In this document: positions 5,531-62,824 of the stretch, piece by piece
Layout: the number at the start of each line of letters is the position of its first letter
Position numbering within the stretch: the stretch's first letter is position 1
NCBI GenBank assembly: GCA_964590395.1
Contig: CAZPVT010000034.1
Location: forward strand, 31,464 to 95,463
Source: an uncultured bacterium
Lineage (GTDB): Bacteria; Hydrothermota; Tepidihabitantia; Tepidihabitantales; Tepidihabitantaceae
Length of the DNA: 64,000 nucleotides
Direction: 5' to 3'
Notes under the pieces: generated by a model
Seen by the model: the letters and a program-made list of their open reading frames with translations, nothing else
Told to the model about the DNA's origin: nothing
The model's database searches: none
Made by a program: the position numbers and the translations under genes

Positions 5531-5536
5531 AACGCA

Positions 5537-11791: not shown

Positions 11792-11794
11792 AGG

Positions 11795-46088: not shown

Positions 46089-48619
46089 TATTTTTCGATA
46101 AATGAGGAGTCAAAATCGATCTGCCAGTCCGGTGAGAAAAAACCCGCACTGCGCACACCGTGCCAGCCAAAACGGCGTACCAAGCGATCAAAGATCATAA
46201 AATCCGGGATTGCCGTTCCTGAGCCAAGAATTCCCCAGAAAAAGGCGAGTTTTGTCGCCTGCAGGTCAGTGCCCATACGCACCAGGACCAGTTTACTGGA
46301 GTTTAAAGGGTTGGGGTAGACAAAAATTGCAGCGAGACTTTCCCCAAGTGCGATCTTTTCCAGTTGCATTTTTCCCCGATTTACACGGATCGGTAGGCGG
46401 TCGCTTATTCTCGCGGTAAAAAGATTTTCCTGGGGGCCACCAAACAGAATGAGGTTACGGTCCAGCGGTATAAATTCCGTGTCCGCTATTACCTCGGTTG
46501 TGCCATTGCCGATCAGCCACCAGCGTAGTGCCTCCTGGCTTGCGCTGTGGTATAGGTAATCGGCAATGGCGGTATCTCTGGTGCCGTAAACAATGGCAAA
46601 AGGTGAGAAATAGGCCTGTTTTGCTGGTCCATAAAGTTTGGGTTGCTTGCTCAACCTGTCCCTTTTTTCCCTGCTGAGTTGCCAGCCCTTTTCTGTATTA
46701 TGCAAAACGATTACCGCTGGCAGTTCGATCCGCTCGGCGATCTTCTGGTGATCGATGATAAGACGGATCGGTCGATTAAAGAACAGACGTTGATCAAGGG
46801 TAAGTGTCAACCGGGTGCAGTTGGTGGTTTTGATCGTGATCGTTGAGTCATCTGCCTGTGCCTCAACGGTGGCGTCGACACCAACGGTTTTCACCCGGTC
46901 AATTTTTAACCAGTAAGCCCGGTTGGTTTGTCCCAGGTCCGCAGTGCGAAACCGGATATGCCTGGGTCCGGGATCACGCCGGCAGCTCTTCAAAAACGCC
47001 ATCAGGTCCGGGTCGTCAACGCAGACCGTGCCATCAGGATAAACCCACCAGTGTTTTTTACCGTGGACCTCCTTGTAATGATATTGATAACCGAGCACAT
47101 CCAGCCAGAGGGCGAACTGTCTGCCGTGAATCGGTGGCACATTATCATCATCACCACCGTGCAGGATAAAAACCGGCAGATTAAGGGCGTTTTCGAGATG
47201 GGCAGGGGTGTTATCTGGTCTTAACGCCATCTCCCTTATTGCCAGTTTCCGGGGTTCGGCGAAGATGATACTGCGCTGGAGAAAATTCGGTATATAAAGT
47301 GGGAAAGAGGGCCAGCCTGCTGCTGGAGCGATTCCCGCAAAGATATCAGGATGGGCAAGGCCAATATGCCAGGTGCCGTGTCCTCCCATTGAGTGGCCGG
47401 TCAACAGGATTTGATCCGGCTCAACAGGAAGTTGCCGGTGTGCTTCAGCCATTGCCTCCATTACATCAATTCTACCCCAGTCCTGCCAATCAAACCCGAA
47501 TGGCCTGCGGTTAGTCGGGCAGACAACAAATGCCCAATCTTTGGGTTTAAAACACTCTGCCAGCGAGTAAGCCTCCACTCCGGCTCCGTGCAGGGAGATG
47601 ATAAGGGAGTACTTTTTATCCGGCTGATAATTTTCCGGGTAAAGCAGGGCGTAATACTGACAGGAGGAGTCAATCCGGGAAATGAACGTCCTTTTGTGAG
47701 GCTGGTTTATCAGCCGGGAGCGTAACCGGAATGTATCGACAATCTCCTGGTTATCAACCGTGGTATTTATCACCAGACGGTAGCCGTTGGTATCGTAGGG
47801 GAGTGCGGGTAAAACTGTTCTGAGTGCCGGTTTTTTAACCGTCAGCGGAGGAAGACGATGGATCACGGTATCACAGACCGTGAATGTGTCAAGCGACAGT
47901 TTTATTTTAATCTGGTTAATAGGTTTATCGGTGGTGTTCATTAAGGGTATGCCTAACCAGGCATCGGTTACTGAATCGGCGATTAAGTCCGGAGCGGTAA
48001 TATCCTGGGTAAAGACAATTACCGGAGAGGCAACCGGGATGAAAAGCAGGCGGACCCGCTGATCTCCATAGCCGGAGATGCGCAAAATGACCCGGTTGAT
48101 TCCGGAGTCAAGTACCACTGGACTCTTAAACCAGTTGTTACCGTAAACATCGCCGAGATAACTTCTGCCGTTGAGAATGAAACTACCCAGTTTGGTAGCA
48201 ACTGCTAACGCCCGGGACTTTTGATGACAGTAAAACTCTGCATAGGCATAACCCACACTGGCAAGTCCACTTACGCCATAATAATCCTGAATTGAATCCC
48301 AGCGCACATCAGGGTAATCGGTATTTAGCCAGCCCAGCGAGTCGGTGGTAACACTGCGCCATTGCAGAAATCCACCCTGCACCAATCCGCTTAAGAGCGA
48401 GTCATGCTCCTGCGGTGTGATGGTGGTTAAATCCTCAAACGCTTCGGTTATTCCTTCTCTGGTGCCGATGGAAAACGGGCCACAGATCAGCCAGTTGGTG
48501 ATAAAGATGGTGTCGGTAATTGATGGCAGGGCTCCGTTTGTCGCATTTAGGAAATGCACGGGGAGGATAGCCGAAAGCAGGGTAAAGGAGATTAGAAAAC
48601 ACCTGTTCACCGTTGCCAC
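46088..48619 (-). CDS. large secreted protein with an alpha/beta-hydrolase (S9 peptidase/esterase-like) domain
   Basis: 843 aa with a signal-like N-terminus and the nucleophile elbow GHSMGGHG, preceded by ISLHGAGVE. GTG start. Confidence 0.6.
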   Translation of the reverse strand: MATVNRCFLISFTLLSAILPVHFLNATNGALPSITDTIFITNWLICGPFSIGTREGITEAFEDLTTITPQEHDSLLSGLVQGGFLQWRSVTTDSLGWLNTDYPDVRWDSIQDYYGVSGLASVGYAYAEFYCHQKSRALAVATKLGSFILNGRSYLGDVYGNNWFKSPVVLDSGINRVILRISGYGDQRVRLLFIPVASPVIVFTQDITAPDLIADSVTDAWLGIPLMNTTDKPINQIKIKLSLDTFTVCDTVIHRLPPLTVKKPALRTVLPALPYDTNGYRLVINTTVDNQEIVDTFRLRSRLINQPHKRTFISRIDSSCQYYALLYPENYQPDKKYSLIISLHGAGVEAYSLAECFKPKDWAFVVCPTNRRPFGFDWQDWGRIDVMEAMAEAHRQLPVEPDQILLTGHSMGGHGTWHIGLAHPDIFAGIAPAAGWPSFPLYIPNFLQRSIIFAEPRKLAIREMALRPDNTPAHLENALNLPVFILHGGDDDNVPPIHGRQFALWLDVLGYQYHYKEVHGKKHWWVYPDGTVCVDDPDLMAFLKSCRRDPGPRHIRFRTADLGQTNRAYWLKIDRVKTVGVDATVEAQADDSTITIKTTNCTRLTLTLDQRLFFNRPIRLIIDHQKIAERIELPAVIVLHNTEKGWQLSREKRDRLSKQPKLYGPAKQAYFSPFAIVYGTRDTAIADYLYHSASQEALRWWLIGNGTTEVIADTEFIPLDRNLILFGGPQENLFTARISDRLPIRVNRGKMQLEKIALGESLAAIFVYPNPLNSSKLVLVRMGTDLQATKLAFFWGILGSGTAIPDFMIFDRLVRRFGWHGVRSAGFFSPDWQIDFDSSFIEK

Positions 48620-48749: not shown

Positions 48750-48777
48750 TTGACAATAAAAAATTTTTTTGTATGAT
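48750..48777 (+). promoter_or_regulatory. promoter of the FHA/PP2C/kinase operon (TTGACA-16-TATGAT)
   Basis: ttgacaataaaaaatttttttgtatgat lies about 120 nt upstream of the ATG at 48898, which is preceded by GGAGG at 48889-48893. Confidence 0.55.
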
Positions 48778-48897
48778 TCCTCCACGGGGCCGATATGCCA
48801 TATATCGAAAAAGAGTTCGATTTGGGTGGTTTTAAATACCATCACCATATCACCAAAGTAAGCCGATGTATTTTGCAAAAATAAAACAGGAGGAAAA

Positions 48898-50535
48898 ATG
48901 CCTAAAATAGTTGTGCGATTAGATCAAAAAACGGTCCAAGAATTAGAGTTGAGTGGTGGCAAGATAACTATTGGCAGAAGTGAGGATAACACGGTTAAAC
49001 TTGAAGATGATGCTGTTTCTCGGCATCATGCGGAAATAATAAAAGAAGGAGAGAGGTATCTTCTCTCTGATTTAGGTAGTGCTAATGGAACTTATGTGGG
49101 AAAGATGCTGATCGCCCGTAATTACGAGTTAAAACAGGGGGATGTAATTAAAATAGGACCTTATACAATCTCTTTTCGTGAGTCTACCGAAGAGAAGCCA
49201 ACTCAAGTTGTCAAAATGGCGACTGCCGAAAAGCCAACGGAGATTTTTACTTTTTCCAGTGCGCCGAGACTAATCGTCCGTAGTGGTGCCGAAGTCGGTC
49301 AAATTCATGATTTAGCAAAGAATCCCTTGATCGGCCGCTCCCCGGAGTGTGATATCGTTTTAAGTGAACCGAGTGTATCAAGAAGGCATGCCCGGATTCA
49401 ATTTATTGATAATCGGCTGAGTATAATGGATGTGGGAAGCAAAACTGGCACACGGGTAAATGGTAAGTTGATAGACCGTCCCACCCAATTGAAAGACGGG
49501 GATAGGATTCAGATAGGGGAAGTGCTCTTGGAAATTGAATGGAAGGGTGGTGGTCCAAGTAGAATTGAGGCGGAACAACCGACTACTGTTTCGTTTAAAA
49601 CCCCGGAAATGACCGAAACCACAAAAGCCGAATGGGGGAAATGGATTGTTGGCATTATTGTTGCGGTAGCAATAGTTGTTGCGGTTATTTATTTTTCTAG
49701 TGCCAGGTGGTTCCGTCGGTCACGAGGATATGAACTGTTGATTTCTGATGCTGAAGTTCTTTTTAACGAGGGCAGGGAAAATAGTCAGATGGAGAAATTA
49801 CAGCTGGCTTTAATGAAAATTGATAGCGCTTTAAGAGTGCAACCTTCGGAGAAAGCAAAGTGGTTAAAGCAGAACATCCAACATAAAATCAACGACCTTA
49901 CCGAGTCCCAAGAACTAACAAAGAATGCCGAAGATATGCTACGCAAGGGGGAACATATTGAGGTAATAAGATATACTAAAATGGCATTAGAAAAGGATAG
50001 AAATAATCCTGAGGCGCGCTCGTTGAAGATTCAAGCTCATCGGGTCTTGGCAACCAAGTATGAGTTGGCAGGGGATAGTGCTAAGGAAAGAGGTAAAGAC
50101 TATCGGGCTGATGATTTTTACGGCCAGGCGGTAAAGGAATGGAATGAGGTGCTGGCGTTGAATGCATCGGACCCGGAAGCCCTGAGAAAAAAAGCGGATA
50201 TACAACGTAAGATTTTGCGACCGGCTGTTTCTCAAGGCAAAGCAACTTCCCGCGTTCGACAGACGGGGCAATACGAAAAAGCTTTGGCAGCCTATCGGGA
50301 AGGACGATTGACAGAGGCTTCAGGGATTGTCAAGATTATTTTAGCCGGCAATCCCAATCACGAAAAAGCGAAACAGTTGATGGAATGGATTGATATTTGG
50401 AATGAAGCTAACTACTTCCTTAACCTAAGAAACGACTCAGCGAAGGCGAAACAAAAATTTGAGGAGTTGTTAAGAAAAGATCCTGATAACCGACAGGCGC
50501 AAGATTGGATTAGAACTCTTTCCGGTGAGCAGTAG
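48898..50535 (+). CDS. membrane protein: two FHA domains, one TM helix, TPR-like C-terminal region
   Basis: FHA 1 reads ITIGRSEDNTVKL..VSRHHAEI...LSDLGSANGTYV. FHA 2 reads LIGRSPECDIVL..VSRRHARI...DVGSKTGTRVNG. The TM helix is WIVGIIVAVAIVVAVIYF, followed by about 270 aa of helical-repeat sequence. Confidence 0.8.
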   Translation: MPKIVVRLDQKTVQELELSGGKITIGRSEDNTVKLEDDAVSRHHAEIIKEGERYLLSDLGSANGTYVGKMLIARNYELKQGDVIKIGPYTISFRESTEEKPTQVVKMATAEKPTEIFTFSSAPRLIVRSGAEVGQIHDLAKNPLIGRSPECDIVLSEPSVSRRHARIQFIDNRLSIMDVGSKTGTRVNGKLIDRPTQLKDGDRIQIGEVLLEIEWKGGGPSRIEAEQPTTVSFKTPEMTETTKAEWGKWIVGIIVAVAIVVAVIYFSSARWFRRSRGYELLISDAEVLFNEGRENSQMEKLQLALMKIDSALRVQPSEKAKWLKQNIQHKINDLTESQELTKNAEDMLRKGEHIEVIRYTKMALEKDRNNPEARSLKIQAHRVLATKYELAGDSAKERGKDYRADDFYGQAVKEWNEVLALNASDPEALRKKADIQRKILRPAVSQGKATSRVRQTGQYEKALAAYREGRLTEASGIVKIILAGNPNHEKAKQLMEWIDIWNEANYFLNLRNDSAKAKQKFEELLRKDPDNRQAQDWIRTLSGEQ

Positions 50536-50614
50536 AGTTTGCTCTGTTAACAGGTGATGGTGGAGAAGATGCGTTTTTAGGATAAAGCGATGTAATGAGA
50601 TTGGCATTTACTTG

Positions 50615-52219
50615 ATGGTCCTTTATTACGGGAGTAGAACAGATATTGGACGGGGCAGAAGCTCTAATCAGGATGCGGTTAGCTGTGATCCTCAAACAGG
50701 TTTGTTTGTAGTTGCAGATGGAATGGGTGGGCATTCTGGCGGCGAAACTGCCAGCAGGGTGGCGATCGAAACAATTCAAGGGGCGGTTAGTCAGGCAAAG
50801 CCTAATTATCAGGAGCGGATGTTTGCTTTAGTAGCTGGTATCCGGGAGGCGAATCACAAAATTCATATACTCGGGTCCAATGATGCAGAGAAAAGAGGGA
50901 TGGGAACTACCGTTACCGCTTTACTTGTTGACCAAGGTAGATATTTCATAACCCATGTTGGAGATTCAAGGGCATATATCATCCGCAACGGCAAATTAAT
51001 TCAGATAACCCGTGACCACTCTTTTGTCCAGCATCTTGTGGATAGTGGAATAATTAATTCTGAACAAGCCCGTGTTCACGAACGACGCAACGAGATTACC
51101 CGTGCGGTCGGGATCGCCGAGGATGTTAAGATTGATACCTTTGAAGGCGAAATTAAGGAAAACGAAGCGATTCTTTTATGTTCAGACGGTCTCTGGGGTG
51201 AGTTAAGTGAAGAAGAAATACTAGAGGCAATTAGCAGGAGTAACACCCCTCAGGAGGCATGCGACCGGTTGATAGATTGGGCAAATGATAAAGGCGGGCA
51301 TGACAATATATCAGTGATCATTGTCCAGTTATCGCCCTCAATAGGTAAATTTTATCCTCTCGAGAGGAAATTCAAGAGGCGTTTTTCTCCGTCGCTCATA
51401 AAAAGAACTGTGGGCGGTGCCGCAGGATTATTGTTGTTACTTTTGCTTGCACTGATTTTAGGACGAAAGTCGGGATTTTTTACCACTGATAATAAGGTAT
51501 TGTGGATTGGTTTGCAAATAAATCCCGAAACTTTAAATGTGGCTATGAAAAAAGCAGGGATTGATACTTTAATAGAGAATAATGACTCCCTCTGCGTGGG
51601 TTTAGGAGAAACTTTGCGGTTCTATCGGAAAGGCTATTACGATTCGATAGTGGGGGTTGTTGCTCGGGATACCCGATACCGGATTGTATTGAGGCCGATT
51701 TTGGTTCCGGTAAACCTGCTTGATCTTCCACCCGAGACAGATATTGAGATTTATGATACCAATGATTTTCTAATTAAAAGGCTTTCTACCGGGGACGAGC
51801 TTTTTTTGCCTTTCGGGATGTATAAAATTCTCATTAAACACCCTGATTATAAAGTATTAGAAAGGGAATTTTTGATAGCAGATACCGAAGCAATTAATTT
51901 GCCCATTACATTAGAATTTCTTCCCGCATCCACCCATAGAGTGATACTTCCTAAAGTTCGGGATTATTGGATCACAATTACTGCTTTTGCAGGAGATATA
52001 TTAGACCCACAAATCGCCAGTTCTGAGGTCTATTTAGACGGCTCTTTTACTGGGCAGCGAGTTCCTACGGTGAAGAAAGATCTAATAAGGTTGAAAGTCA
52101 GTCCAGGTAAGCACACCATTACACTGGTTAAAGGTGGTAAAACAGTTACTCAAAAGGAGGTAACTTTAACCGAAAAGAATAGTATTATTAACCTGGGCCC
52201 TAATGAGTTTAAGAGGTAA
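50615..52219 (+). CDS. PP2C-family Ser/Thr phosphatase with a TM helix and a PEGA-like C-terminal region
   Basis: PP2C motifs RSSNQDA, VADGMGGHSGGE, MGTTV, HVGDSRAY, SDGLWG and GGHDNISV. TM helix GGAAGLLLLLLLALILG. The C-terminus includes VYLDGSFTGQ...GKHTITLVKGG. Confidence 0.8.
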   Translation: MVLYYGSRTDIGRGRSSNQDAVSCDPQTGLFVVADGMGGHSGGETASRVAIETIQGAVSQAKPNYQERMFALVAGIREANHKIHILGSNDAEKRGMGTTVTALLVDQGRYFITHVGDSRAYIIRNGKLIQITRDHSFVQHLVDSGIINSEQARVHERRNEITRAVGIAEDVKIDTFEGEIKENEAILLCSDGLWGELSEEEILEAISRSNTPQEACDRLIDWANDKGGHDNISVIIVQLSPSIGKFYPLERKFKRRFSPSLIKRTVGGAAGLLLLLLLALILGRKSGFFTTDNKVLWIGLQINPETLNVAMKKAGIDTLIENNDSLCVGLGETLRFYRKGYYDSIVGVVARDTRYRIVLRPILVPVNLLDLPPETDIEIYDTNDFLIKRLSTGDELFLPFGMYKILIKHPDYKVLEREFLIADTEAINLPITLEFLPASTHRVILPKVRDYWITITAFAGDILDPQIASSEVYLDGSFTGQRVPTVKKDLIRLKVSPGKHTITLVKGGKTVTQKEVTLTEKNSIINLGPNEFKR

Positions 52220-52223
52220 AGTT

Positions 52224-53633
52224 ATGACCGCTGCTGAGGAGTCGATGGGGAGATACCGAATTATGGAAGAAATCCACACAGGAACGGTAAGTTGCCTTTA
52301 TAAGGCTTATGATCCAAGTCGGAATGAAATGGTAGCCTTAAAGACCTTAAAACCAGAACTTTCCGATGACCCAGAGGTAGTTGAACGTTTTAAAAGAGAA
52401 GCAAGAGTTGCCCAAAATTTGGAACACCCTAATATAATAAAAATATACGATATCGGTTCAGGAGAACATCGCCATTATTTTTCAATGGAGCTCATCGATG
52501 GTCCAAGTTTAAGGAGAATTCTTGAATCAGGGCAGATTTTGTCGATAGAAAAAGCTCTGGAGATTGCCAAAGAAATCTGCTTAGCACTTCATTTTGCTCA
52601 TCAAAAACAGATCATTCATCGTGATATAAAGCCATCTAATATTATGATTAACAAAAATGGAGGTACTGTTGTTCTTGATTTCGGGATTGCAAAAATTAAA
52701 AATTTAGCACGGTTGACGCGTCCTGGTTTTCTTCTGGGAACACCAGAATATATGTCACCCGAGCAAATAAAGGATAGGTTAGTTGATGGTAGAAGCGATA
52801 TATATTCCTTAGGGATAGTTCTGTACGAACTACTTACTGGCAGAGTACCATTTAGGGGCAAGGATTTCTTAGAGATCGCGGAAAGGATAGTGAAAGAAAC
52901 GCCTCCGGAACCGAGCAAGATCAACAAGAATATTACCAAAGAAATCGACAAGTTGATCCTTAAAGCAATAAATAAAGAAAGATGGTCAAGGTTTTCTTCC
53001 GCGCTGGAAATGGCTAATGCGCTACAGAGTATATTAGGTTTGCCGCCCCTGCCTATCAAGGGACGGTCTTACCGTTTTACTCCCCCAATGTTTGATACTA
53101 AAAGAAGGGATAAGTTAGTGGATGTGAGAACCGGGAAAGTAAGCCTTTCAGCAGGGGCGATTTTAAGGAGAACTATGGGTTTCTGGTTTCCTTCTATTAT
53201 TGCTTTGGCGCTATTGTTACTTATAGTTCTTGTTTATGAGTTTCCTAATCTGATGCCATTATTTTTAATCCTTGTTACTGTAACGGCGGTTTTGTGGTTT
53301 TTAAGTTACTTTAAGCCGAAAATGGCGAGTAAAAGATATCGGCTTGCCCGTCTTTTGCTTTTCGATGGCAAAGAGGTAACAAATGAGTTTATATTAAACA
53401 AACCTCGGGTGGTGATTGGTAGAGACCAGCCTGACGGGATTGAACTTTTTAAGGAGACAATTTCTCGTGCTCATGCGCAAATTATTAACAAAAATGGTCA
53501 ATATATTATTTATGATTTGAATAGCAAAAACGGCACATTTGTTAATTGCAAAAGAATTCGTTGTTGCATTTTAAAAAATAGTGACCGGATAAATATTGGT
53601 GGTGAAATCTTATTTTTTCAAGGAGAGGAGTGA
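52224..53633 (+). CDS. Hanks-type Ser/Thr kinase, two TM helices, C-terminal FHA domain
   Basis: Kinase motifs VALKTL, HRDIKPSN, DFGIAK and GTPEYMSPE. Two hydrophobic helices (FWFPSIIALALLLLIVLVY and LMPLFLILVTVTAVLWFLSY). FHA reads VVIGRDQPDGIEL..ISRAHAQI...YDLNSKNGTFVN. AAGAGG SD before the ATG at 52224. Confidence 0.8.
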   Translation: MTAAEESMGRYRIMEEIHTGTVSCLYKAYDPSRNEMVALKTLKPELSDDPEVVERFKREARVAQNLEHPNIIKIYDIGSGEHRHYFSMELIDGPSLRRILESGQILSIEKALEIAKEICLALHFAHQKQIIHRDIKPSNIMINKNGGTVVLDFGIAKIKNLARLTRPGFLLGTPEYMSPEQIKDRLVDGRSDIYSLGIVLYELLTGRVPFRGKDFLEIAERIVKETPPEPSKINKNITKEIDKLILKAINKERWSRFSSALEMANALQSILGLPPLPIKGRSYRFTPPMFDTKRRDKLVDVRTGKVSLSAGAILRRTMGFWFPSIIALALLLLIVLVYEFPNLMPLFLILVTVTAVLWFLSYFKPKMASKRYRLARLLLFDGKEVTNEFILNKPRVVIGRDQPDGIELFKETISRAHAQIINKNGQYIIYDLNSKNGTFVNCKRIRCCILKNSDRINIGGEILFFQGEE

Positions 53634-53636
53634 GTT

Positions 53637-53726
53637 ATGTCGATTACTTATCAAAAAGGCGTTGGCTATAAAGGATTTGGATGGACTGTCTCTTATCTGG
53701 TATTAACCAAAAGAGAGCGGAGGTGA
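53637..53726 (+). CDS. candidate 29-aa micro-ORF bridging two operon genes
   Basis: ATG lies 3 nt after the kinase stop and 6 nt after GGAGAGGAG. It encodes MSITYQKGVGYKGFGWTVSYLVLTKRERR. Its TGA lies 2 nt before the next ATG (53729). Confidence 0.3.
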   Translation: MSITYQKGVGYKGFGWTVSYLVLTKRERR

Positions 53727-53728
53727 AT

Positions 53729-54772
53729 ATGTCAAGAAAGTTTATCATTTTCAGTAGAGATGGTAGTTGGACGCGATGCTTCCTTTGGACATCCATTGTG
53801 CTACTTACTGGAACGACGGTTCTTTTTGCCCAGAGCGGTCAGGGGAGAGTAAAGATCTCCAGCGGCATTGGAAAGTATTACAATTCTGAATTTGAAGAGG
53901 CTATTAAGGAGTTAAATGAGGCGTTAATGGACCTTTCCCTTGATTTTAAGGACTCGACCATTGCTTTTTTCTATATTGCTTTTTCCCATTTAAAGATTGG
54001 CGAAGAGACAAAAGGTCGTGGTTTCTTTCAGAAAATTCTTATGCGCAATCCTGACGAAGAACTACTCAAAGGGTTTGAGGAATTTCAGGAGGTGTTTGAG
54101 AAAGTTAGAAAAGAGGTTAAGAGCAGGCTCCTCTGTCAAGTTACCATAAACACTATTCCGTCGGAGGCGGCAGTTTATCTTGACGGCGTTTTCCAAGGGA
54201 AAACGCCAATAACTTTACCTGGGTTGACCAAAAATAAATTTTATTCTCTGAAAATTGAGAGAGCGAACTACGAATCACTCAGTATGAGACTAATATTTCA
54301 CCGTGATACGTCATTTATTTTCGTATTGACGGAAATCCGTCCTTCCCGTTCTCAGGACACGGTTCTTCCCAGAATTCAAGATAGGTACATCTACTCCCGT
54401 CCGAGGACCTTTGCATATTTGTTAGGCGCTGGGATTGGCGCGGTGTTGGGGCTAACTGCCGGTGGTATTTCCTGGCACTGGGATAATCAGGCGCAGAAGA
54501 AACTGCACGAATATGCACTTGAACAGGATACGGCAAAGGAACGGCAGTTGGTTGCTCAGATTCACCAGTATGATTTGCTCCGCACAGTATTTTATTATTC
54601 GTCTTACCCGCTCACTGCGCTTGGTTTTTATATTGGACTGAAGATTGCGGAACGTGTTCCGGGGTGGTATGCCCAGAATTATAAAGAAAAGGACAGATTG
54701 ATGGTTTATGGTTCAATAGATCAGGATTTAAACCCAGGAATAAATATAAGGATAAGGAGAGACCTATGGTAA
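53729..54772 (+). CDS. membrane protein with signal peptide, TPR-like segment, PEGA domain and C-terminal TM helices
   Basis: GGAGG precedes the ATG at 53729. The PEGA domain reads VTINTIPSEAAVYLDGVFQGKTPITLPGL...YSLKIERANYES. Hydrophobic helices lie near residues 225-250 and 290-315. Confidence 0.7.
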   Translation: MSRKFIIFSRDGSWTRCFLWTSIVLLTGTTVLFAQSGQGRVKISSGIGKYYNSEFEEAIKELNEALMDLSLDFKDSTIAFFYIAFSHLKIGEETKGRGFFQKILMRNPDEELLKGFEEFQEVFEKVRKEVKSRLLCQVTINTIPSEAAVYLDGVFQGKTPITLPGLTKNKFYSLKIERANYESLSMRLIFHRDTSFIFVLTEIRPSRSQDTVLPRIQDRYIYSRPRTFAYLLGAGIGAVLGLTAGGISWHWDNQAQKKLHEYALEQDTAKERQLVAQIHQYDLLRTVFYYSSYPLTALGFYIGLKIAERVPGWYAQNYKEKDRLMVYGSIDQDLNPGINIRIRRDLW

Positions 54773-55422
54773 AAAATTTTTTAACTACCACTCTCTTGGT
54801 CGCAATAGTTGGCGGTATTTTAATAACCGGGGGATGTTTGCGAAAACTGGCATTCCCGCCTAAATTCAACTCAAAACTGCCAGATACAATTCAAGTTTAT
54901 CAGAACGGCTACCGCACCTTCTTTTTGGATTCGCTTGTGAATGACCAGGACGATAGCATTGCTCACCTTAAATGGACAGTAGTACCAGGACCATTGCTCA
55001 CAGTGATTGTTAAGGAAAATGAACATTTAGTAGATATCAAACCAGAGCGGAATCGGACCGGTGTTTCCTGGGTCAGTTTTACCGTAGTTGACCCCGGTGG
55101 TCTGAGTGCAAATAAGACCTGTACCGTGAATATTGATACAGTAGTATTTAGATGGTTAATTAGCGACACATCCGCCAACAAAGGTGCGACGGTTGTCCTT
55201 TACAAAAATCGGCTTGTAAATTATACCACGCCGCCTAATGGATTTAGTTATCTTAAATGGCTAGTATATAACGATACAAATTACTTGTCGTGTTCAATGA
55301 CAATAGATGCTGTTATATTAACAGCCAAACAGCGAGATGGGACCACGGGTGTATATTTCTACCTTAATGATACGGTTAATCATATTGAGTTCAACCAGAG
55401 TATACTTGTGAGGATTCGTTAG
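54766..55422 (+). CDS. lipoprotein with an Ig-like (bacterial Ig/cadherin-like) domain
   Basis: Lipobox ILITGGC and an Ig-like block LKWTVVPGP...VSWVSFTVVDPGGLSANKTCTVNI. ATGGTAA overlap with the upstream gene. Confidence 0.65.
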   Translation: MVKNFLTTTLLVAIVGGILITGGCLRKLAFPPKFNSKLPDTIQVYQNGYRTFFLDSLVNDQDDSIAHLKWTVVPGPLLTVIVKENEHLVDIKPERNRTGVSWVSFTVVDPGGLSANKTCTVNIDTVVFRWLISDTSANKGATVVLYKNRLVNYTTPPNGFSYLKWLVYNDTNYLSCSMTIDAVILTAKQRDGTTGVYFYLNDTVNHIEFNQSILVRIR

Positions 55423-55447
55423 TAGCATAGGATTCGGATAATTTTAC

Positions 55448-56857
55448 ATGAGTTATCGATGGTTGATTGGTAAAGATTTGCAAAACGGGAAATATAAGAT
55501 AGTTGCCTTCATCGGTAGAGGGGGGATGGCAGAGGTTTACGAAGGTTTTGATACTAAATTAAAACGCAAGGTCGCAATTAAAATCCTGGGTCGCGAGTAT
55601 ATCAACAACCCCTATCTCGTTCGCCGATTTTACGAAGAGGCACAAATTGCCGCTAATTGTGACCATCCTAATATCGTAAAGATATATGATATCCACAATG
55701 AGGGGGAGATTCATTATTTTGTAATGCAATATCTTCCCCGGACGCTTGCTAATATCCTGAAAGAAAAAAAGGTTCTTTTACCGATTGAGGTAATGAAAAT
55801 TTTGAAGCCGATTGCGGAGGCTTTAGTTTATACCCAAAACAGGGGGATTGTCCATAAGGATATTAAGCCTGCCAATATTATGTTTACTGAACACGGAGTT
55901 CCTGTCCTTACCGATTTTGGCATCGCTTTGCATGACGACAGCACCAGATTCCAAGGGGCGGTTGCGACCGGAACGCCAGAGTATATGTCTCCGGAACAGA
56001 TTGAGGGCAAAGAGTTAGATTTTCGTTCGGACATTTATTCTTTAGGGATCGTGCTTTATGAGTCGGTTACAGGGGGTGTTCCGTTTCAAGCCGATGAGCC
56101 ACACGCAGTTCTATACCAACATATCCACAAACCGCTCCCGGAAAAGCCATTACAAGAGAAATCGGTACCTAAACCGGTATGCGATGTTTTACGCAAATGT
56201 TTGGCTAAATCACCGATTGACCGCTATCAGTCTGCGGAAGAGCTGGTCTCAACGATTGATGAGGTCATTAAAACTCTCTCAGTTCAAAGGTCAGGAGCGG
56301 GGATTAAATATCTAATTATGGTTCTATTGGGGATACTGGTTGTTAGTGGCATAATAGTCGGCAGAAAATATTTTATGTCTTTGAACCCTGAGTTTCTGAA
56401 ACCGATTGGTTCTAAAAACCGTGCACCGTTTGCTACGGTTTCCTTATTGATTATGGACTCAATTGCCGCCCAGCCAGTACCATTTTTCGCAGAACTCTCT
56501 TTTCGAACCCAAGAACAGGAAACGACGTTTTCAATTCAAAAGGGTGAGGCGACTATAAAACTGTATTCGGAAAACCCGAAAACATTTCTGGTATCTCCCA
56601 ATCTCTCTACACAAAGTTCTTTGTCTGATACCTTTACGGTCTTCGGTCCATTTGCCAAGCCCGGGGTTCCGGTTACAATTTGGGTAGAAGTGCCTTACTA
56701 TGAGGGTGCGGGTGTTTCAATCGCGGTAAATGAAGGGGATAATAAAGAATTAAAAATTAAATTACAATCAAAGCAGATTTATTGTGGTGGCTGTGGAAAG
56801 CAATTTGATTTTGGTGATACCATTTGCTCAAAATGCGAGAAGAAACGAGAGAAATGA
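55448..56857 (+). CDS. Hanks-type Ser/Thr kinase, one TM helix, ~150-aa ectodomain, C-terminal zinc ribbon
   Basis: Kinase motifs VAIKIL, HKDIKPAN, DFGIAL and GTPEYMSPE. TM helix YLIMVLLGILVVSGIIVG. It ends with CGGCGKQFDFGDTICSKCEKK. Confidence 0.8.
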   Translation: MSYRWLIGKDLQNGKYKIVAFIGRGGMAEVYEGFDTKLKRKVAIKILGREYINNPYLVRRFYEEAQIAANCDHPNIVKIYDIHNEGEIHYFVMQYLPRTLANILKEKKVLLPIEVMKILKPIAEALVYTQNRGIVHKDIKPANIMFTEHGVPVLTDFGIALHDDSTRFQGAVATGTPEYMSPEQIEGKELDFRSDIYSLGIVLYESVTGGVPFQADEPHAVLYQHIHKPLPEKPLQEKSVPKPVCDVLRKCLAKSPIDRYQSAEELVSTIDEVIKTLSVQRSGAGIKYLIMVLLGILVVSGIIVGRKYFMSLNPEFLKPIGSKNRAPFATVSLLIMDSIAAQPVPFFAELSFRTQEQETTFSIQKGEATIKLYSENPKTFLVSPNLSTQSSLSDTFTVFGPFAKPGVPVTIWVEVPYYEGAGVSIAVNEGDNKELKIKLQSKQIYCGGCGKQFDFGDTICSKCEKKREK

Positions 56858-58833
56858 AGCGGGTAAAAATTCTTTTTCTGCTGTTGGTTTGGTTTTCTTT
56901 ACTTTTCGCTCTAAAGGTCTGTCATAAATGCGGCACGGAAAATCCCGATAGTTATGAGTACTGTAAGAAATGTGGCACCAAGTTATTTCAGAAGTTAAGG
57001 GTTCCCGATGTAGTTGGTAGAAACAAAGAGGAAGCGATAACATTACTCAGGTCCCGTGGTTTTCGTTATGAATTTAGAGATACTTTTTATAACATCCCAG
57101 TGGGGACCGTTGTTAAACAGTTACCGACCGGCGGCACGGTTATTAGGGAAGGGAGTGAGGTTATATTATGGGTCTCACTCGGCACACCTGAACCGAAATG
57201 GTTAGTGACACTTAAGTCTTGGGAGGGTTGGCCTAGAGAGGGAAAAGGGGTTGCCGGTATTTTAGTTAGGGATTCAATAGTAACAGTCAAGGATCCGAGT
57301 GGAAGGATAAAAACAGTTTCCATTATAAGGAATAGCTCAACTGATAGTAGTGTGGTAGTTCTCCATGATAACTGGCAGGGACCTGATAATTATGGAGAAA
57401 ACTGGCTTTCATATTCATATGGTGATGTTAAACTAACGATATTTTTACTTGAGGGCAGGGTTGATACCTTAACGGTGTTACTGTCCGAGTCATTGAAGTT
57501 AGACCTGGCGACCGCTTTTGATGCTATTCAAAGATGTTTAGATACGGTTATTCCCGAAACAGCAGATAGCGTACATCGGTGCTACCCGAACAAAGGTATA
57601 TCGTTACTTTACCGAATGGATACTTTGGTCGGATTTAAGATCTTTGCCCCAAGAGAAGAACCCCGATGGCTTAAGGTGTTAAAAAGGGATGGAATTGATA
57701 TAAAAAATCTGGCGGTGGCTGGTTTGAGTATTGGGATGTATGCGGATAGTATTAAACTCGTATTGGGAAGTCCGACCGCAAAGACATCAAACAGGTTAAG
57801 TTATGAGTTTTTAAACAATCGAGTGGTCTTTTCTGTCGTAGAGGGCGAGATTGATACAATAACCCTTTTGGGGGATAAGAAATTATTTGATTCGTTAATA
57901 CCCCTCAAAAACTATAGAGAGTTTATTGTTAGTTATGGGCAGCCAGAGTCGTTAACGGAGTATGGGAGTAGGCGAGAGATTGGCTATCCGAAGTTGGGAT
58001 TATACCTATCTTTTGATGGAGAGTCCTTAAAAGTTGTAAAACTGAGTTTCCCGGTTTACTTCAATATGGTTTTCATTCCTGCGGGGAACTGTCTAATTGG
58101 AACGACAAGGCAGGAGATGGAGAGATTGATAAAGACCCATCCTGACTGGGACAAAGGATTTTTTTTAAATGAAATGCCCCGGAAAAAAATTTTTATAAAC
58201 TACGGTTTCTATATAGATAGATTTGAAGTTACCAACCGTCAGTTTAAGAAATTTGTTACGGCAACAAAATACAAACCAGAAGGAGATTGGTTTAGGTGGT
58301 ACAGAAATAAGGTAGAGTTAGACAATCATCCGGTTGTCGGTGTTACCTGGAATGATGCTAATGCCTATGCTCAATGGGCGGGTAAAAGACTGCCCTACGA
58401 GATAGAATGGGAGAAAGCGGCAAGGTGCTCGCTTGGATATTTATTTCCCTGGGGGAACAGCGAGGAAGATGTCGCTAATAAGGCTAATTTTCAACTATCC
58501 CAGATCAACACAACTGTGGCAGTTGATTCATATTCTATGGGTAAAAGTCTGTTCGGAGTGTTTAATATGGCGGGGAACGTCTGGGAGTGGTGTGCGGATT
58601 ATTATGTTGATGATTATATAAAAGTTCTTCCCGAAAAGATTGAGCGTCCGGAGATGATAGGTGTGATAAGATCGAAAACAAAGGAGATCGAGGCGGACAG
58701 TCTAAGGGTATCAGCAAGAGGGGGGGCGTTCAACTGGGGACTTTTTTGGATCAGAAGTGCTTGTAGACACTATTTCCCAAAGAATACATCCCGAGGAGAC
58801 CTCGGGTTTAGGTGTGTAAAAGATGTGAAATAA
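56854..58833 (+). CDS. membrane-anchored zinc-ribbon / PASTA / tandem ~135-aa repeat / FGE-sulfatase (SUMF1) domain protein
   Basis: ATGA overlap with the kinase gene. Hydrophobic N-terminus ILFLLLVWFSLLFAL followed by CHKCGTENPDSYEYCKKCG. PASTA reads VPDVVGRNKEEAITLLRSRGF...VGTVVKQLPTGGTVIREGSEVILWVS. FGE motifs are FYIDRFEVTN, HPVVGVTWNDANAYAQWAGKRLP, GNVWEWC and GFRCV. Confidence 0.8.
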   Translation: MKRVKILFLLLVWFSLLFALKVCHKCGTENPDSYEYCKKCGTKLFQKLRVPDVVGRNKEEAITLLRSRGFRYEFRDTFYNIPVGTVVKQLPTGGTVIREGSEVILWVSLGTPEPKWLVTLKSWEGWPREGKGVAGILVRDSIVTVKDPSGRIKTVSIIRNSSTDSSVVVLHDNWQGPDNYGENWLSYSYGDVKLTIFLLEGRVDTLTVLLSESLKLDLATAFDAIQRCLDTVIPETADSVHRCYPNKGISLLYRMDTLVGFKIFAPREEPRWLKVLKRDGIDIKNLAVAGLSIGMYADSIKLVLGSPTAKTSNRLSYEFLNNRVVFSVVEGEIDTITLLGDKKLFDSLIPLKNYREFIVSYGQPESLTEYGSRREIGYPKLGLYLSFDGESLKVVKLSFPVYFNMVFIPAGNCLIGTTRQEMERLIKTHPDWDKGFFLNEMPRKKIFINYGFYIDRFEVTNRQFKKFVTATKYKPEGDWFRWYRNKVELDNHPVVGVTWNDANAYAQWAGKRLPYEIEWEKAARCSLGYLFPWGNSEEDVANKANFQLSQINTTVAVDSYSMGKSLFGVFNMAGNVWEWCADYYVDDYIKVLPEKIERPEMIGVIRSKTKEIEADSLRVSARGGAFNWGLFWIRSACRHYFPKNTSRGDLGFRCVKDVK

Positions 58834-58857
58834 ATTATGATAAAGAAAGGAGTGGTT

Positions 58858-59670
58858 ATGAAGAATACCAGGGCATTAATAATAGGCACTATTTTCTGTG
58901 CTGTTTTTTTTAATACCTCGAATATAGTAAGTGCGACAAACCCTCAAACGCTTTCTTGCCATAATCAGGATGCACAGATTCCCGAACTTATCAATTATCA
59001 GGCAAAACTGGTGGATTCAACTGGCCAGCCGGTTGTTGACGGTGGATATGTAATGGTGTTTTCCCTTTACACCGATACTACTTCTCGAAGACAGCCCATC
59101 TGGAGCGAGACCCAAATTGTCCAGACCCGAAACGGTCTTTTTAATGTTTTCTTAAATATTCCGCCGGGTAACTTATCGTCCAACTCCTGCTATCTTGGAA
59201 TTCGGGTGCTCCCTTCAGAGAAAGAGATGTTACCACTCCAGCGAATTGTAAGTGTGCCGTTTGCCTACTTTGCACATAGCGCTGGTGAGGCGCAGCGAGT
59301 TAGTGGCTATAACATTACCGGACTTGATGGCCGGTATGTGAACGAAAACCAGACAAACTCTATTACCAGCCCGATGATCGTTGATAGCACAATTACTTCT
59401 GCGGATATTGCTTCTGGTTTTCTTCTACTCAATACTTCATTAATGGGGGGCGATGTGATTCAATCGGGTAGTAGTATTGATACCGTGATCAACTCCGAGG
59501 TTACTACTGGTTGTCTGATTTTTTTGACAATCGGTCCGACTCGGGATAGTGTTAAACCAATTAAGGTTTATTCTATCGCCAATGGTCGTTTCGTGGTTGG
59601 TACAATTGACAATCAGCCTACTTTGGCACCCATCCCTTTCCAGTACCTGATCATTAAACCTAATCCATAG
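58858..59670 (+). CDS. secreted protein of unknown function
   Basis: AAGGAG lies 5 nt before the ATG at 58858. Signal peptide MKNTRALIIGTIFCAVFF...VSA. No confident domain call. Confidence 0.6.
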   Translation: MKNTRALIIGTIFCAVFFNTSNIVSATNPQTLSCHNQDAQIPELINYQAKLVDSTGQPVVDGGYVMVFSLYTDTTSRRQPIWSETQIVQTRNGLFNVFLNIPPGNLSSNSCYLGIRVLPSEKEMLPLQRIVSVPFAYFAHSAGEAQRVSGYNITGLDGRYVNENQTNSITSPMIVDSTITSADIASGFLLLNTSLMGGDVIQSGSSIDTVINSEVTTGCLIFLTIGPTRDSVKPIKVYSIANGRFVVGTIDNQPTLAPIPFQYLIIKPNP

Positions 59671-59675
59671 GAGGG

Positions 59676-60257
59676 GTGATGATATCGTCTCTTTTGTTTG
59701 GTTTCCTCCTGATGTTGGCGACCGGCAGTAATGTTAAGGGAACGGGATCGTTGGGCGGTGTTGATGGTGCTATGCAAATTAATTGGTGGACGGTAAATTC
59801 AGCCGGGGTGGTATTGGCTGCTGATGGTAGATACTTACTTTCCGGGTGTATCACCTCTTCACCGGTTGGCGTGAGTGACATCAGCCGTTACTATGGATTA
59901 GCCGGTGGTTTCTGGGTTTCAGAATTTAGATTTTCTCCGAAGGTCTCACGGGAAGGACAGATCTTTTCGCTAACGATGCGGGATTTTAAACTATATCAGA
60001 ATTTTCCCAATCCCTTCCGAACGAAAACCAGTATCAGTTACGAGATTCCCACTGAGCAACAGGTGGCGCTCCTCATTTATGACCATTCGGGAAGATTGGT
60101 TAAGAGATTGTTTATCGGTCGGCAGCAACCGGGTAGATATACTATTAAATGGGATGGCAGGAATGAGATTGGTCATAGGTGTGCTGAAGGAATATACTTC
60201 TATATGTTTAAAACCGAAGGATATTCCGCAATAGAAAAGATAGTTATTACGAAGTAG
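59676..60257 (+). CDS. secreted protein with a T9SS/FlgD-Ig-like C-terminal domain
   Basis: AGGAGGGG precedes the ATG. Signal-like N-terminus. C-terminus reads LYQNFPNPFRTKTSISYEIP...VALLIYDHSGRLVKRL...EGIYFYMFK. Confidence 0.65.
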   Translation: MMISSLLFGFLLMLATGSNVKGTGSLGGVDGAMQINWWTVNSAGVVLAADGRYLLSGCITSSPVGVSDISRYYGLAGGFWVSEFRFSPKVSREGQIFSLTMRDFKLYQNFPNPFRTKTSISYEIPTEQQVALLIYDHSGRLVKRLFIGRQQPGRYTIKWDGRNEIGHRCAEGIYFYMFKTEGYSAIEKIVITK

Positions 60258-60309: not shown

Positions 60310-61203
60310 TCAGTTGAGGCAGATGTTGTCTTTTGATTTACATCGATCGCATTCTAACTCCAGGGTTATATGGGTGATGGCAAATTTCTTTTCTAAACTG
60401 CAGGTCAGTTCAGAAAGCAAGGGTTGAAAACTGCTGAGCATACCATCGTTGACCACCAGATGAGCGCTCAGCGCCCGCTCCTTCTCTCCCAGCGTCCAGA
60501 TGTGTAAATCGTGTATTCCGTGGATAACGGGCGAGAAGCCGAGAATAAAATCCCGCACGGTGTCGTAATTCAGGTCTTGAGGTGTAGCGTCAATCAGAAT
60601 GTTTGTTGACTGGCGGAAAATACGATAGGTGCCATAAATTACCAGTAGCGCTATGGCGATTGAAAGCAGGGGATCAATAACTGTCCAGTTGGTTATCCCG
60701 ATGACAATACCACTTACCAGCACCGCCCCGGAGCCCAAAAGGTCATCCAGCAGATGCCACATTGCGGCGCGGATGTTCAGTGAATGGCGATGACGGTTCA
60801 GAATCAGTACTGCAATCCCATTGACACCAATACCGAGGATTGCCATTGCGATCATAACCGGGCTCTTTACCGGCTCAGGATTGAAAGTTCTTGTAAATGC
60901 GGCCCTTATAACCAGAACTGTGAACATGGTTAAGACAAGTGCGTTGACAAAGGCAATCAGCACCTGAACCTTGCGATAGCCGAAGGTGCGCTGACCACTG
61001 GGGGGGAGAAGTGACAGCCGTAGTCCCAGATAGGAAAGCATCAGTGCCACTGCATCGCCAGCGTCATGCAGTGCGCCCGCAATTAAAACCAGTGAGTTAG
61101 CCCAGAGTCCTGTTAACAGTTCGGTTAGGGCAAAACCGAGATTTAGTCCGATAGAGACAATCAGACCGCGTCCCTGAAGTGCAGTTTGATGATTCGTTGC
61201 CAT
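60310..61203 (-). CDS. cation diffusion facilitator (CzcD/ZitB-like) metal efflux transporter
   Basis: Six TM segments with HxxxD pairs (ALHDAGDA, WHLLDDLLG) and a C-terminal cytoplasmic domain. Confidence 0.85.
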   Translation of the reverse strand: MATNHQTALQGRGLIVSIGLNLGFALTELLTGLWANSLVLIAGALHDAGDAVALMLSYLGLRLSLLPPSGQRTFGYRKVQVLIAFVNALVLTMFTVLVIRAAFTRTFNPEPVKSPVMIAMAILGIGVNGIAVLILNRHRHSLNIRAAMWHLLDDLLGSGAVLVSGIVIGITNWTVIDPLLSIAIALLVIYGTYRIFRQSTNILIDATPQDLNYDTVRDFILGFSPVIHGIHDLHIWTLGEKERALSAHLVVNDGMLSSFQPLLSELTCSLEKKFAITHITLELECDRCKSKDNICLN

Positions 61204-62120: not shown

Positions 62121-62333
62121 CCTGACCTCCTTTATTTATACTTATCAATGTTCGGTATAACATCGGTTTGTAACCCAGTGCTATTAAAATCCAGATACTA
62201 AGAGTTAGTGGTTAGTATTACTCTTTACTATCAGTAATTAACTCAACCAATTCCTCAATTTTAATTTTACTATTTCAGGACTGCCTGTCAAGTTTTTCTT
62301 TTTATGTATTGGACCGGCGGATAAACAAAAGCA

Positions 62334-62720
62334 GGCAGGCGGGTCTGTAAGCCGGGTTCTGTACTCCTTGCGGAGCGACGGTCATTTCTCTGGGATGCAC
62401 AGTTACCCGTGCACCTCAAGCAACCTACCCGGGAATGATAACGGGCCGGGCAAGCCCTCTTCCCTGTTTGGTTTTGCACCAGGCAGGGTTTGTCCATCCG
62501 GTATGTCACCATACCGGATAGTGCGCTCTTACCGCACTATTTCACCCTTACCAGCCACCGGTAACCTCAACCCGGTACCTGGCGGTATGGTTTCTGTGAC
62601 ACTTTCCGTCTGTTTGCGGTCTCCCGCAAACAGCCTCGCGGTTAGCGAGTGCCTTGCCCTTTGGTGCCCGGACTTTCCTCGGTCCGTTTTACTGGACCGC
62701 GACCGTCCGACCCGCCTGCC
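62334..62720 (-). ncRNA. rnpB: RNase P RNA, bacterial type A
   Basis: The minus strand contains GAGGAAAGTCCGGGC near the 5' end and ACAGAACCCGGCTTA near the 3' end. A 12-bp P1 stem is formed by GGCAGGCGGGTC (62720-62709) and GACCCGCCTGCC (62345-62334). Length 387 nt. Confidence 0.9.
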
Positions 62721-62730
62721 GCATTATATT

Positions 62731-62759
62731 ATTATAAGCGGTTCCTCCTCTTCTATCAA
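62731..62759 (-). promoter_or_regulatory. rnpB promoter (TTGATA-17-TATAAT)
   Basis: The minus strand reads TTGATA gaagaggaggaaccgct TATAAT aatataatgc, then the P1 stem begins. Confidence 0.5.
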
Positions 62760-62800
62760 TACCGGTAAGTATACCCGAATTTTCCTTATGGGTAACAGGT

Positions 62801-62824
62801 AAAAAGCCCTGTGCCTGAACAGGG
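62801..62824 (-). terminator. weak candidate intrinsic terminator after the nuclease gene
   Basis: The minus strand reads CCCTGT tcaggc ACAGGG c TTTTT. The stem is only 6 bp, placed between the CDS stop (62966) and the rnpB promoter. Confidence 0.3.

Follow-up and report, generated by a model that had tools for sequence, protein, structure and literature searches.

What is the output of a bacterial gene block that combines FHA proteins, a PP2C phosphatase and two membrane kinases of the Hanks type with several sensor-like envelope proteins and two secreted proteins? In Actinobacteria and Firmicutes, FHA/PP2C/Hanks-kinase modules are known to govern the growth of the cell wall, in Proteobacteria that of type VI secretion they are known to control its activity, and to our knowledge almost nothing is known about them in candidate phyla related to the FCB (Fibrobacteres-Chlorobi-Bacteroidetes) group. 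We studied such a block of ten open reading frames (ORFs), O1 to O10, in a 64,000-nucleotide stretch of DNA (the window: contig CAZPVT010000034.1 of assembly GCA_964590395.1, positions 31,464 to 95,463) from an uncultured, hot-spring-type bacterium of the Hydrothermota. Nine of the ten genes were found in the same order in 13 related loci, and the chances look about even to us that the region is a single operon in which these nine genes couple an envelope Ser/Thr switch to a surface fibre.

A nine-gene cluster conserved in related loci

Domains were called with Pfam and NCBIfam profile searches and topologies with hydropathy scans; the scans agreed with the proposed transmembrane (TM) topologies of the cluster proteins. 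The block is laid out as follows, in window coordinates:

48898-60257, plus strand: ten-ORF block O1-O10 (ORF calling)
48750-48777, plus strand: sigma-70-like motif TTGACA-16-TATGAT, 11 of 12 consensus matches, the region's best, some 120 nt upstream of O1
48898-50535, plus strand: O1, two cytoplasmic FHA domains, TM 250-268, periplasmic TPR/helical domain (profiles and hydropathy)
50612-52219, plus strand: O2, cytoplasmic PP2C Ser/Thr phosphatase, TM 266-284, ectodomain of about 250 aa (profiles and hydropathy)
52203-53633, plus strand: O3, Hanks kinase, two-TM hairpin (326-344, 350-368), C-terminal FHA domain (profiles and hydropathy)
53637-53726, plus strand: O4, doubtful 29-aa micro-ORF, probably the O3-O5 spacer (ORF calling)
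53729-54772, plus strand: O5, signal/anchor, TPR-like helical region, PEGA domain, C-terminal hydrophobic hairpin (profiles and hydropathy)
54766-55422, plus strand: O6, small lipoprotein-like Ig-fold (Big_9) protein (Pfam and hydropathy)
55448-56857, plus strand: O7, Hanks kinase, TM 286-304, beta-rich ectodomain of about 140 aa, C-terminal CxxC...CxxC ribbon (profiles and hydropathy)
56854-58833, plus strand: O8, signal peptide/anchor, CxxC ribbon, PASTA domain, middle region (about 111-405), FGE/C-type-lectin-like domain (profiles)
58837-59670, plus strand: O9, secreted, short member of a tail-fibre-like family (signal peptide and ortholog alignment)
59676-60257, plus strand: O10, small secreted protein with a C-terminal sorting domain of type A of the type IX secretion system (T9SS) (profiles and hydropathy)

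An initial annotation of the window, made from its letters alone, had proposed ten tightly spaced ORFs behind one promoter. Their coordinates, strand and spacing were confirmed, neighbouring ORFs overlapping or standing at most 95 nt apart and all lying on the plus strand, but the number of conserved genes came to nine, as the micro-ORF O4 is not conserved. It had no family match in the profile searches, and the relatives leave no room for it: their O3-O5 spacers lie between a 4-nt overlap and some 100 nt, with at most 52 nt in the six loci with called genes. O4 was thus rejected as a cluster gene. An SD-like GGAG (SD, Shine-Dalgarno) precedes it and its stop codon runs into the Shine-Dalgarno sequence used by O5, so that it could be translated in this genome though not conserved.

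The promoter-like motif is present where it was proposed. We scored it against a sigma-70-like consensus, from which that of the WOR-3 lineage (see below) may differ. The region held 24 such sites, at the chance level of 25.2 expected from shuffled sequence, so the motif alone proves nothing and is a candidate only. A strong AGGAGG Shine-Dalgarno sequence lies directly 5' of the O1 start ATG.

Related loci were found with both a kinase and the putative sensor as query. A search with O8 gave two full-architecture homologs, and one with O3 a close-knit set of orthologs (460-483 aa, 48-59% identity) that stood clearly apart from other kinases. The contigs of the O3 and O8 homologs, together with a metagenome scan using the FHA end of O3 (5 loci), provided 13 loci (L006, L007, L088, L089, L090, L093-L097, L099, L100 and L101); a scan of metagenome contigs with an alignment of the O8 N-terminus found no loci, and one of genome contigs with an O3 alignment, whose patterns were generic kinase motifs, gave 80 loci of unrelated kinases. 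The order O1-O2-O3-O5-O6-O7-O8-O9-O10 was the same in all 13 as far as the contigs extend, with no exception. The proteins of these relatives are 25-61% identical to those of the window, and the GC content of the loci ranges from 33 to 61%. The arrangement was found neither in the open-access literature searched nor as a catalogued system. None of the outcomes that the initial annotation had named as refuting it (failed domain calls, no synteny in relatives, an order already catalogued) thus came about. Moreover, the O8 middle region matched only 5 of 1.84 billion representative protein clusters, all five of 630-659 aa. The cluster is a rare, lineage-restricted unit kept in a few uncultured lineages.

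Eight relatives carry a further gene directly upstream of O1, which encodes a beta-propeller of the PD40/Tricorn (TolB-like) type:

L088, 5617-6669: PD40 propeller gene
L089, 5717-6817: PD40 propeller gene
L090, 2525-3601: PD40 propeller gene
L095, 4506-5552: PD40 propeller gene
L096, 2921-3898: PD40 propeller gene
L099, 2506-3633: PD40 propeller gene
L100, 4644-5693: PD40 propeller gene
L101, 591-1637: PD40 propeller gene

It is missing before O1 in L007 and in the window, and no homolog was found anywhere in the window. The propeller is a tenth member of the cluster in most relatives, lacking in this genome. In L007 an extra 283-aa ribbon-PASTA protein (9150-10001), a paralog of the N-terminal half of O8 with 26% identity, is encoded between O7 and O8.

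More distant kinase-FHA homologs (31-34% identity) adjoin 2-oxoglutarate dehydrogenase (ODH) genes and have no such cluster. In L091 (5646-12197) and L092 (5408-12094) the kinase-FHA gene (about 33% identity) comes right after ODH E1/E2 and before a DUF6391 gene, an arrangement reminiscent of the control of ODH by PknG-GarA/OdhI in Actinobacteria. We therefore rejected the kinase-FHA architecture as a predictor of the cluster; the unrelated context of these homologs indicates that the linkage is specific to the cluster described here. No transcription factor gene was found in any of the loci, and the 13 related ones held no gene for SEDS, penicillin-binding protein (PBP), MurJ, DivIVA/Wag31 or cell division.

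FHA scaffold, phosphatase and kinases

The domain orders proposed in the initial annotation for O1, O3, O5, O6, O7 and O10 were all recovered by the profile searches and hydropathy scans, as detailed here and below, whereas those for O2 and O8 were recovered in part. O1 matched the Pfam FHA family (1.8e-44) in two stretches, as well as TPR_14 and Fis1_TPR_C, and has one TM segment. Its score against the NCBIfam FhaB/FipA model was above the cut-off (140.9 bits, cut-off 125) and that against the TagH model below it (100.5 bits, cut-off 120.25). Orthologs of O1 occur in all relatives at 40-59% identity, and the protein is a predicted phosphothreonine-binding scaffold. For O2, which likely starts at the ATG at 50615, the PP2C domain (PP2C 7e-16, PP2C_2 4.3e-15) and the TM segment were recovered, and its 265 bits exceeded the threshold of the Stp1/IreP equivalog (230). 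The PEGA-like ectodomain was left borderline, with 20.7 bits against a cut-off of 20.8 and an hhalign probability of 11%.

Both kinases, O3 and O7, keep VA[IL]K, the catalytic loop (HRD or HKD) and DFG. O3 (likely true start 52224; Pkinase 1.7e-51, FHA 5.4e-17) has intact HRD, DFG and VALK motifs that are kept in six orthologs, with HRD in all orthologs. Its predicted topology is a two-TM hairpin without ectodomain that leaves both the kinase and the FHA domain in the cytoplasm. Accordingly, the proposal that every signalling protein is membrane anchored with a distinct ectodomain held for the anchors and failed for the O3 ectodomain. The FHA domain of O3 is the third of the cluster, the other two being those of O1. 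O7 (Pkinase 3.7e-51) varies in its catalytic loop: the proteins of the window, L006 and L088 have HKD, those of L007, L089 and L090 have HRD. The HKD variant may point to regulation of the non-RD type among some family members. As judged from these motifs, the cluster encodes two catalytically intact membrane Hanks kinases.

The best model for both kinase domains was that of the Stk1/PknB PASTA kinases (NF033483), with 331.8 bits for O3 and 306.5 bits for O7. These scores are below its cut-off of 450, since only the kinase domain aligns and PASTA sits on another protein, O8. That PASTA belongs to a non-kinase protein had been proposed at the outset and was borne out.

O7 and O8 appear to be translationally coupled: the ATG of the likely O8 start (56854) overlaps the O7 stop (ATGA). 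The C-terminal end of O7 (56782-56857) and the start of O8 (56920-56973) both carry zinc-ribbon-like CxxC...CxxC motifs, which are conserved in most orthologs of either protein. Predicted topology puts both ribbons in the periplasm, an unusual place for zinc ribbons, and the pair may mark a contact between the two proteins.

Periplasmic and outer partners

O5 likely starts at the ATG at 53729, with GGAGGTG as an upstream Shine-Dalgarno sequence. Besides its PEGA domain (3.1e-10) it showed the helical region and the hydrophobic hairpin, and six orthologs were aligned. O5 also had a weak match (E 3e-4) to the TssQ-family model for lipoproteins of the T6SS (type VI secretion system). PEGA is regarded as a peptidoglycan-associating domain, and O5 is a predicted peptidoglycan-associated membrane protein. 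Of the 8 relatives with called genes at the O5-O6 junction, 7 share with the window an overlap of 7 nt between the two genes. O6, annotated as an Ig-like lipoprotein, scored above the Big_9 cut-off (28.7 bits against 23.6), its N-terminal hydrophobic segment ends in ...ITGGC, and orthologs were present in all relatives at 33-50% identity.

O8 had been described as a protein with a zinc ribbon, PASTA, a twofold repeat and an FGE (formylglycine-generating enzyme) domain. Ribbon, single PASTA (3.8e-13) and FGE-sulfatase domain (4.3e-46) were confirmed by Pfam, the last as a full-length match (PF03781, 158.1 bits, positions 4-255 of 255) that indicates the FGE fold. The twofold repeat stayed weakly supported, by a self-match of 27 residues (E 2e-4) and a structure model of low confidence. 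PDB matches of O8 were FGE (1.4e-25), PorK (8.5e-14) and TvpA (9.5e-5), and its match to the NCBIfam GldK/PorK model (3.7e-25, 89 bits) was far below the GldK cut-off of 350.

The catalytic, copper-binding cysteine pair of human FGE is C336 and C341, in a segment of the form GGS-x-x-C-x4-C. The matching segment of O8 reads GGAFNWGLFWIRS in the window, and no conserved cysteine pair was found there in five O8 orthologs; O8 was consequently rejected as a catalytic FGE. The cysteines of the structural disulfide (ARC..., ...GFRC) are invariant in the O8 orthologs. With the catalytic pair absent and the structural cysteines kept, the domain is best seen as a non-catalytic, extracytoplasmic binding module of the C-type-lectin kind, and O8 as a predicted periplasmic ligand sensor.

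The tail-fibre-like O9 and the putative T9SS cargo O10

O9 (likely start 58858) had been annotated simply as a secreted protein. The signal peptide was found; the protein is not generic, being a probable truncated member of a tail-fibre-like family that is always paired with a protein bearing a T9SS C-terminal domain (CTD). In family members, stalk repeats that vary in number lie between two conserved domains, an N-terminal one of about 100 aa and a C-terminal one, and the length among the relatives ranges from 277 to 886 aa. Long orthologs (635-886 aa) match the phage tail fibre family phrog_892, with E 2.5e-19 for that of L088 (746 aa) and 3.8e-19 for that of L090 (635 aa); weak matches were MAT-fibre, K1-lyase_C and DUF5907. 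The window O9 is a short version with one stalk repeat, had no significant tail-fibre profile match itself and was placed in the family through the shared N- and C-terminal domains. It had no Pfam match and no T9SS CTD was found in it, and a search of PDB sequences with the family profile found nothing. The O9 terminal domains, the O8 middle region and O6 represent new protein families without structural or functional annotation.

O10 was confirmed as a secreted protein with a T9SS-type CTD. It matched FlgD_ig (6.2e-12) and Por_Secre_tail (PF18962) in Pfam, and TIGR04183 with 34.9 bits against a cut-off of 23 over residues 110-191 of 193; with this terminal CTD and a hydrophobic N-terminus as signal it has the features of type A cargo. 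Orthologs from L088, L090 and L095 were 40-43% identical to O10, over the full length for L088 and L095 and over residues 33-193 for L090, and comparison with L088 and L095 showed conservation over the whole length, beyond the CTD.

In the relatives the tail-fibre-like O9 is always followed by the small T9SS-CTD protein O10. A second, diverged pair of fibre-like (477 aa) and T9SS-CTD (182 aa) genes lies upstream of the cluster in L088 (2644-4634), so that the pair behaves as a duplicable module. Just upstream of the cluster in L100 there is a gene for a PorV/UPF0164-like outer-membrane protein (3126-4076, weak Pfam matches), along with another whose product exceeds 1000 aa. Other proteins with FlgD_ig/T9SS-type CTDs are encoded in the window at 5432-7156 (plus strand) and 25827-26909 (minus strand), so that the genome encodes several putative T9SS cargos.

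Composition and genomic surroundings

The cluster (48898-60257) has a GC content of 0.42, compared with 0.49 for the rest of the window, and the GC content at third codon positions (GC3) is 0.35-0.46 in its genes and 0.49-0.57 in other window genes. In L088 and L090 the composition of the cluster equals that of the left flank. The cluster is thus compositionally foreign in this genome, which suggests a fairly recent horizontal acquisition from a lower-GC relative. Its immediate neighbours are:

46088-48619, minus strand: Peptidase_S9 gene, left flank, divergent
60310-61203, minus strand: cation-efflux gene, right flank, convergent

The remaining window is ordinary housekeeping: Rho, RF, LysRS, TrpRS/TyrRS, Dxr, RseP, S2, EF-Ts, RRF, SSB, YchF, Pth, L25, Prs, tRNA-Gln and RNase P RNA. 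The LysRS shares 77-80% identity with proteins labelled candidate division WOR-3. The DNA of the window recurs at 99.99-100% identity in five metagenome assemblies (L001-L005), and O8 showed no hypervariation across these near-identical copies.

Further features were noted outside the cluster. An RNase P class A RNA (288 bits) lies at 62332-62718 on the minus strand, so the overlapping plus-strand ORF at 62368-62802 is spurious. A gene for a DUF2357 protein with a PD-(D/E)XK domain (PDDEXK_7) lies at 62966-63844 on the minus strand and runs past the window (17519-21250 in L001). A gene for a 668-aa protein without Pfam matches comes next; the two look like a restriction or McrBC-type defence pair, for which PADLOC gave weak matches to PDC-M26B. 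A selenocysteine synthase (SelA) gene adjoins one for an ATP:guanido phosphotransferase (a McsB-like protein arginine kinase) at 10400-12841 on the minus strand.

Proposed mechanism and alternative explanations

A signalling route can be drawn through these proteins. O8 would stand near O7, as the two are translationally coupled and each has a CxxC ribbon in the periplasm. With O5 and O6 as helpers, O8 would bind a peptidoglycan- or glycan-derived ligand or sense perturbation of the envelope; in relatives the PD40 propeller would join this sensing layer. Sensing by O8 would activate O7, which would phosphorylate juxtamembrane threonines on itself, O3 and/or O1. The FHA domain of O3 and the two of O1 would dock on the phosphothreonines, giving a kinase-scaffold complex at the inner membrane, while the periplasmic TPR of O1 would pass the state to periplasmic partners and O2 would reset the switch. 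Since the cluster has no transcription factor, a post-translational output in the envelope seems most likely, and since the fibre and CTD genes are the only other invariant ones, the most economical output would be control over how the O9 fibre, with the T9SS-routed O10, is exported, anchored or deployed. Such control would parallel the gating of type VI secretion by TagQRST-PpkA-PppA-Fha1.

In a bolder form of this reading, to which we give a probability of roughly one in four, the cluster would be a T9SS-linked counterpart of the T6SS threonine phosphorylation pathway: a self-contained, horizontally mobile unit in which a periplasmic PASTA/lectin sensor and two membrane kinases post-translationally gate the export or deployment of the fibre and its CTD partner. 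Several points weigh against the route drawn above, for which we see about even chances. The link from phosphorylation to fibre and CTD protein is drawn from conserved gene linkage alone; phospho-acceptor sites, ligands, protein contacts and operon transcription are all predicted from the genes. No T9SS core genes were seen within the 64-kb window. The likeness to the T6SS pathway is one of parts and not of orthology, with O1 below the TagH cut-off, O5 matching TssQ at E 3e-4, no vWA domain and no TagS/TagT. The AlphaFold2 model of O8, built from a three-sequence alignment, had a pLDDT of 40 and left the middle region undefined, and PASTA and PEGA would fit a role in cell-wall homeostasis equally well.

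Such a role is the substance of one alternative, in which the cluster is a regulator of cell-wall growth or homeostasis of the PknB/StkP/PrkC type in a diderm: PASTA on O8 and PEGA on O5, possibly also on O2, would sense peptidoglycan precursors or fragments, the substrates would be synthesis or division proteins encoded elsewhere, and the fibre and CTD genes would merely be co-located. The affinities of the signalling proteins all lean this way (the kinase domains to Stk1/PknB, O2 to Stp1/IreP, O1 to FhaB/FipA), as do the PASTA domain, the peptidoglycan association ascribed to PEGA and a gene logic like that of the actinobacterial fhaA-fhaB-pstP-rodA-pbpA-pknA-pknB cluster. Nevertheless, cell-wall synthesis and division genes are absent from the 13 loci, the cluster is very rare, its foreign GC3 fits an accessory, transferable trait and not core cell-wall control, and O9 and O10 are linked as strictly as the signalling genes themselves. 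We regard this explanation as possible but on the unlikely side. The order of events could also be reversed, the fibre being the input: O9 with O10 would be a surface antenna for another cell (prey or partner) or a phage, relayed through the periplasmic proteins to the kinases, in a surveillance or defence-type system with its effector elsewhere. Variable stalk repeats and lengths from 277 to 886 aa are typical of receptor-binding fibres, lectin-type FGE domains bind ligands or invaders in diversity-generating retroelement (DGR) and conflict systems, and the cluster is foreign and near the DUF2357/PD-(D/E)XK restriction-like gene. The kinases even match the PADLOC models PD-T4-6 and mad6, but these matches reflect generic kinase-domain and PASTA similarity, and O1, O5, O6, O9 and O10 match no defence model. 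None of the loci holds an effector (nuclease, pore former, protease or NADase), neither a DGR reverse transcriptase nor a template repeat was noticed, and O8 is not hypervariable among L001-L005, all of which makes an input role of the fibre rather improbable. Lastly, common signalling genes might lie together by chance, or the ORF calls might be an artefact, without there being a functional unit. Genes for FHA proteins, PP2C and kinases are indeed common and the promoter motif count is at chance level, but 13 loci whose proteins are 25-61% identical and whose GC differs widely have the same nine-gene order, with conserved start/stop overlaps, which refutes this explanation and leaves it a negligible chance.

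If the linkage between signalling and secreted proteins is functional, the cluster would be a case in which post-translational control of surface display through T9SS can be tested, and an example of PASTA sensing in a diderm. Should the T9SS-linked reading be true, a checkpoint based on Ser/Thr phosphorylation would have been described for the first time in T9SS cargo or in a bacterial surface fibre.

Comparison with known systems

The closest functional analogue is the threonine phosphorylation pathway of the Pseudomonas aeruginosa H1-T6SS (TagQ, TagR, TagS/T, PpkA/TagE, PppA/TagG, Fha1/TagH), which the initial annotation had missed. There, the outer-membrane lipoprotein TagQ and TagR, a periplasmic protein with an FGE-sulfatase domain (PA0071; COG1262), act upstream of the membrane kinase PpkA, together with the PP2C phosphatase PppA and the FHA protein Fha1. 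The cluster has analogous parts of each kind: a lipoprotein and a predicted periplasmic FGE-sulfatase-domain protein beside a single-pass membrane Hanks kinase, with a PP2C that would serve for reset and an FHA protein as putative phospho-dependent scaffold. The T6SS pathway gates an envelope machine post-translationally and not by transcription, and the same is proposed for the cluster. By analogy, the cluster would work like this pathway without being a member of it: no T6SS genes (TssA-M, Hcp, VgrG) were found in the window or among the called genes of the related loci, and no TagS/T ABC pair adjoins the cluster in the window or in relatives. Unlike PpkA, O7 has a beta-rich ectodomain and a Cys ribbon and no vWA domain. 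The cluster also differs in having two kinases, one with its own FHA domain, a membrane-anchored PP2C and FHA scaffold, PASTA on the FGE-like protein, and a fibre and a T9SS-CTD protein as linked cargo.

The initial annotation had instead pointed to the actinobacterial fhaA-pknB cluster (Rv0020c-Rv0014c in Mycobacterium tuberculosis), which does share parts with the present one: each combines, within a single operon, FHA proteins with a membrane-bound PP2C, a pair of Hanks kinases and a PASTA sensor. A likeness to Stk1/StkP/PrkC with Stp1/PrpC is likewise seen in the kinase and PP2C models matched. RodA and PbpA of the actinobacterial cluster are absent here, as had been noted at the outset; neither RodA nor PBP was found in the window cluster or the 13 related loci. 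PASTA occurs as a single copy on a separate, secreted FGE-like protein and not C-terminally on the kinase as in Stk1/PknB, the host, from the WOR-3 lineage, is a diderm, and PEGA, lipoprotein, fibre and T9SS-CTD genes are not known from the actinobacterial cluster.

Fusions of a Hanks kinase with an FGE-sulfatase domain exist, for example the Proteo1 family in the bacterial Ser/Thr kinase atlas, and FGE/C-type-lectin domains act as ligand binders, including the lectin-type FGE (FGS) domains of DGR variable proteins. What O8 shares with these proteins is a non-enzymatic domain of this kind as extracytoplasmic binding module, in line with its PDB match to TvpA. In contrast to the fusions, kinase O7 and sensor O8 are separate, seemingly coupled polypeptides, and O8 carries PASTA as well as a middle region specific to its family; a DGR is absent. 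The FGE-like domain of O8 also resembles the T9SS ring lipoproteins PorK/GldK and GldJ of the FGE-sulfatase superfamily and matches GldK/PorK, yet it is closer to true FGEs, its architecture is another one, and PorL, PorM and PorN are lacking in the cluster. A known anti-phage defence system was rejected as an identity for the cluster, as its PADLOC matches are limited to generic kinase and PP2C (PDC-M21C) models. In this cluster, then, a known signalling logic is joined to a different set of sensors (PASTA with a lectin-like FGE domain, PEGA, a lipoprotein and the PD40 propeller) and to a different linked output, a tail-fibre-like protein with T9SS cargo, in a combination that has stayed whole in genomes differing widely in base composition.

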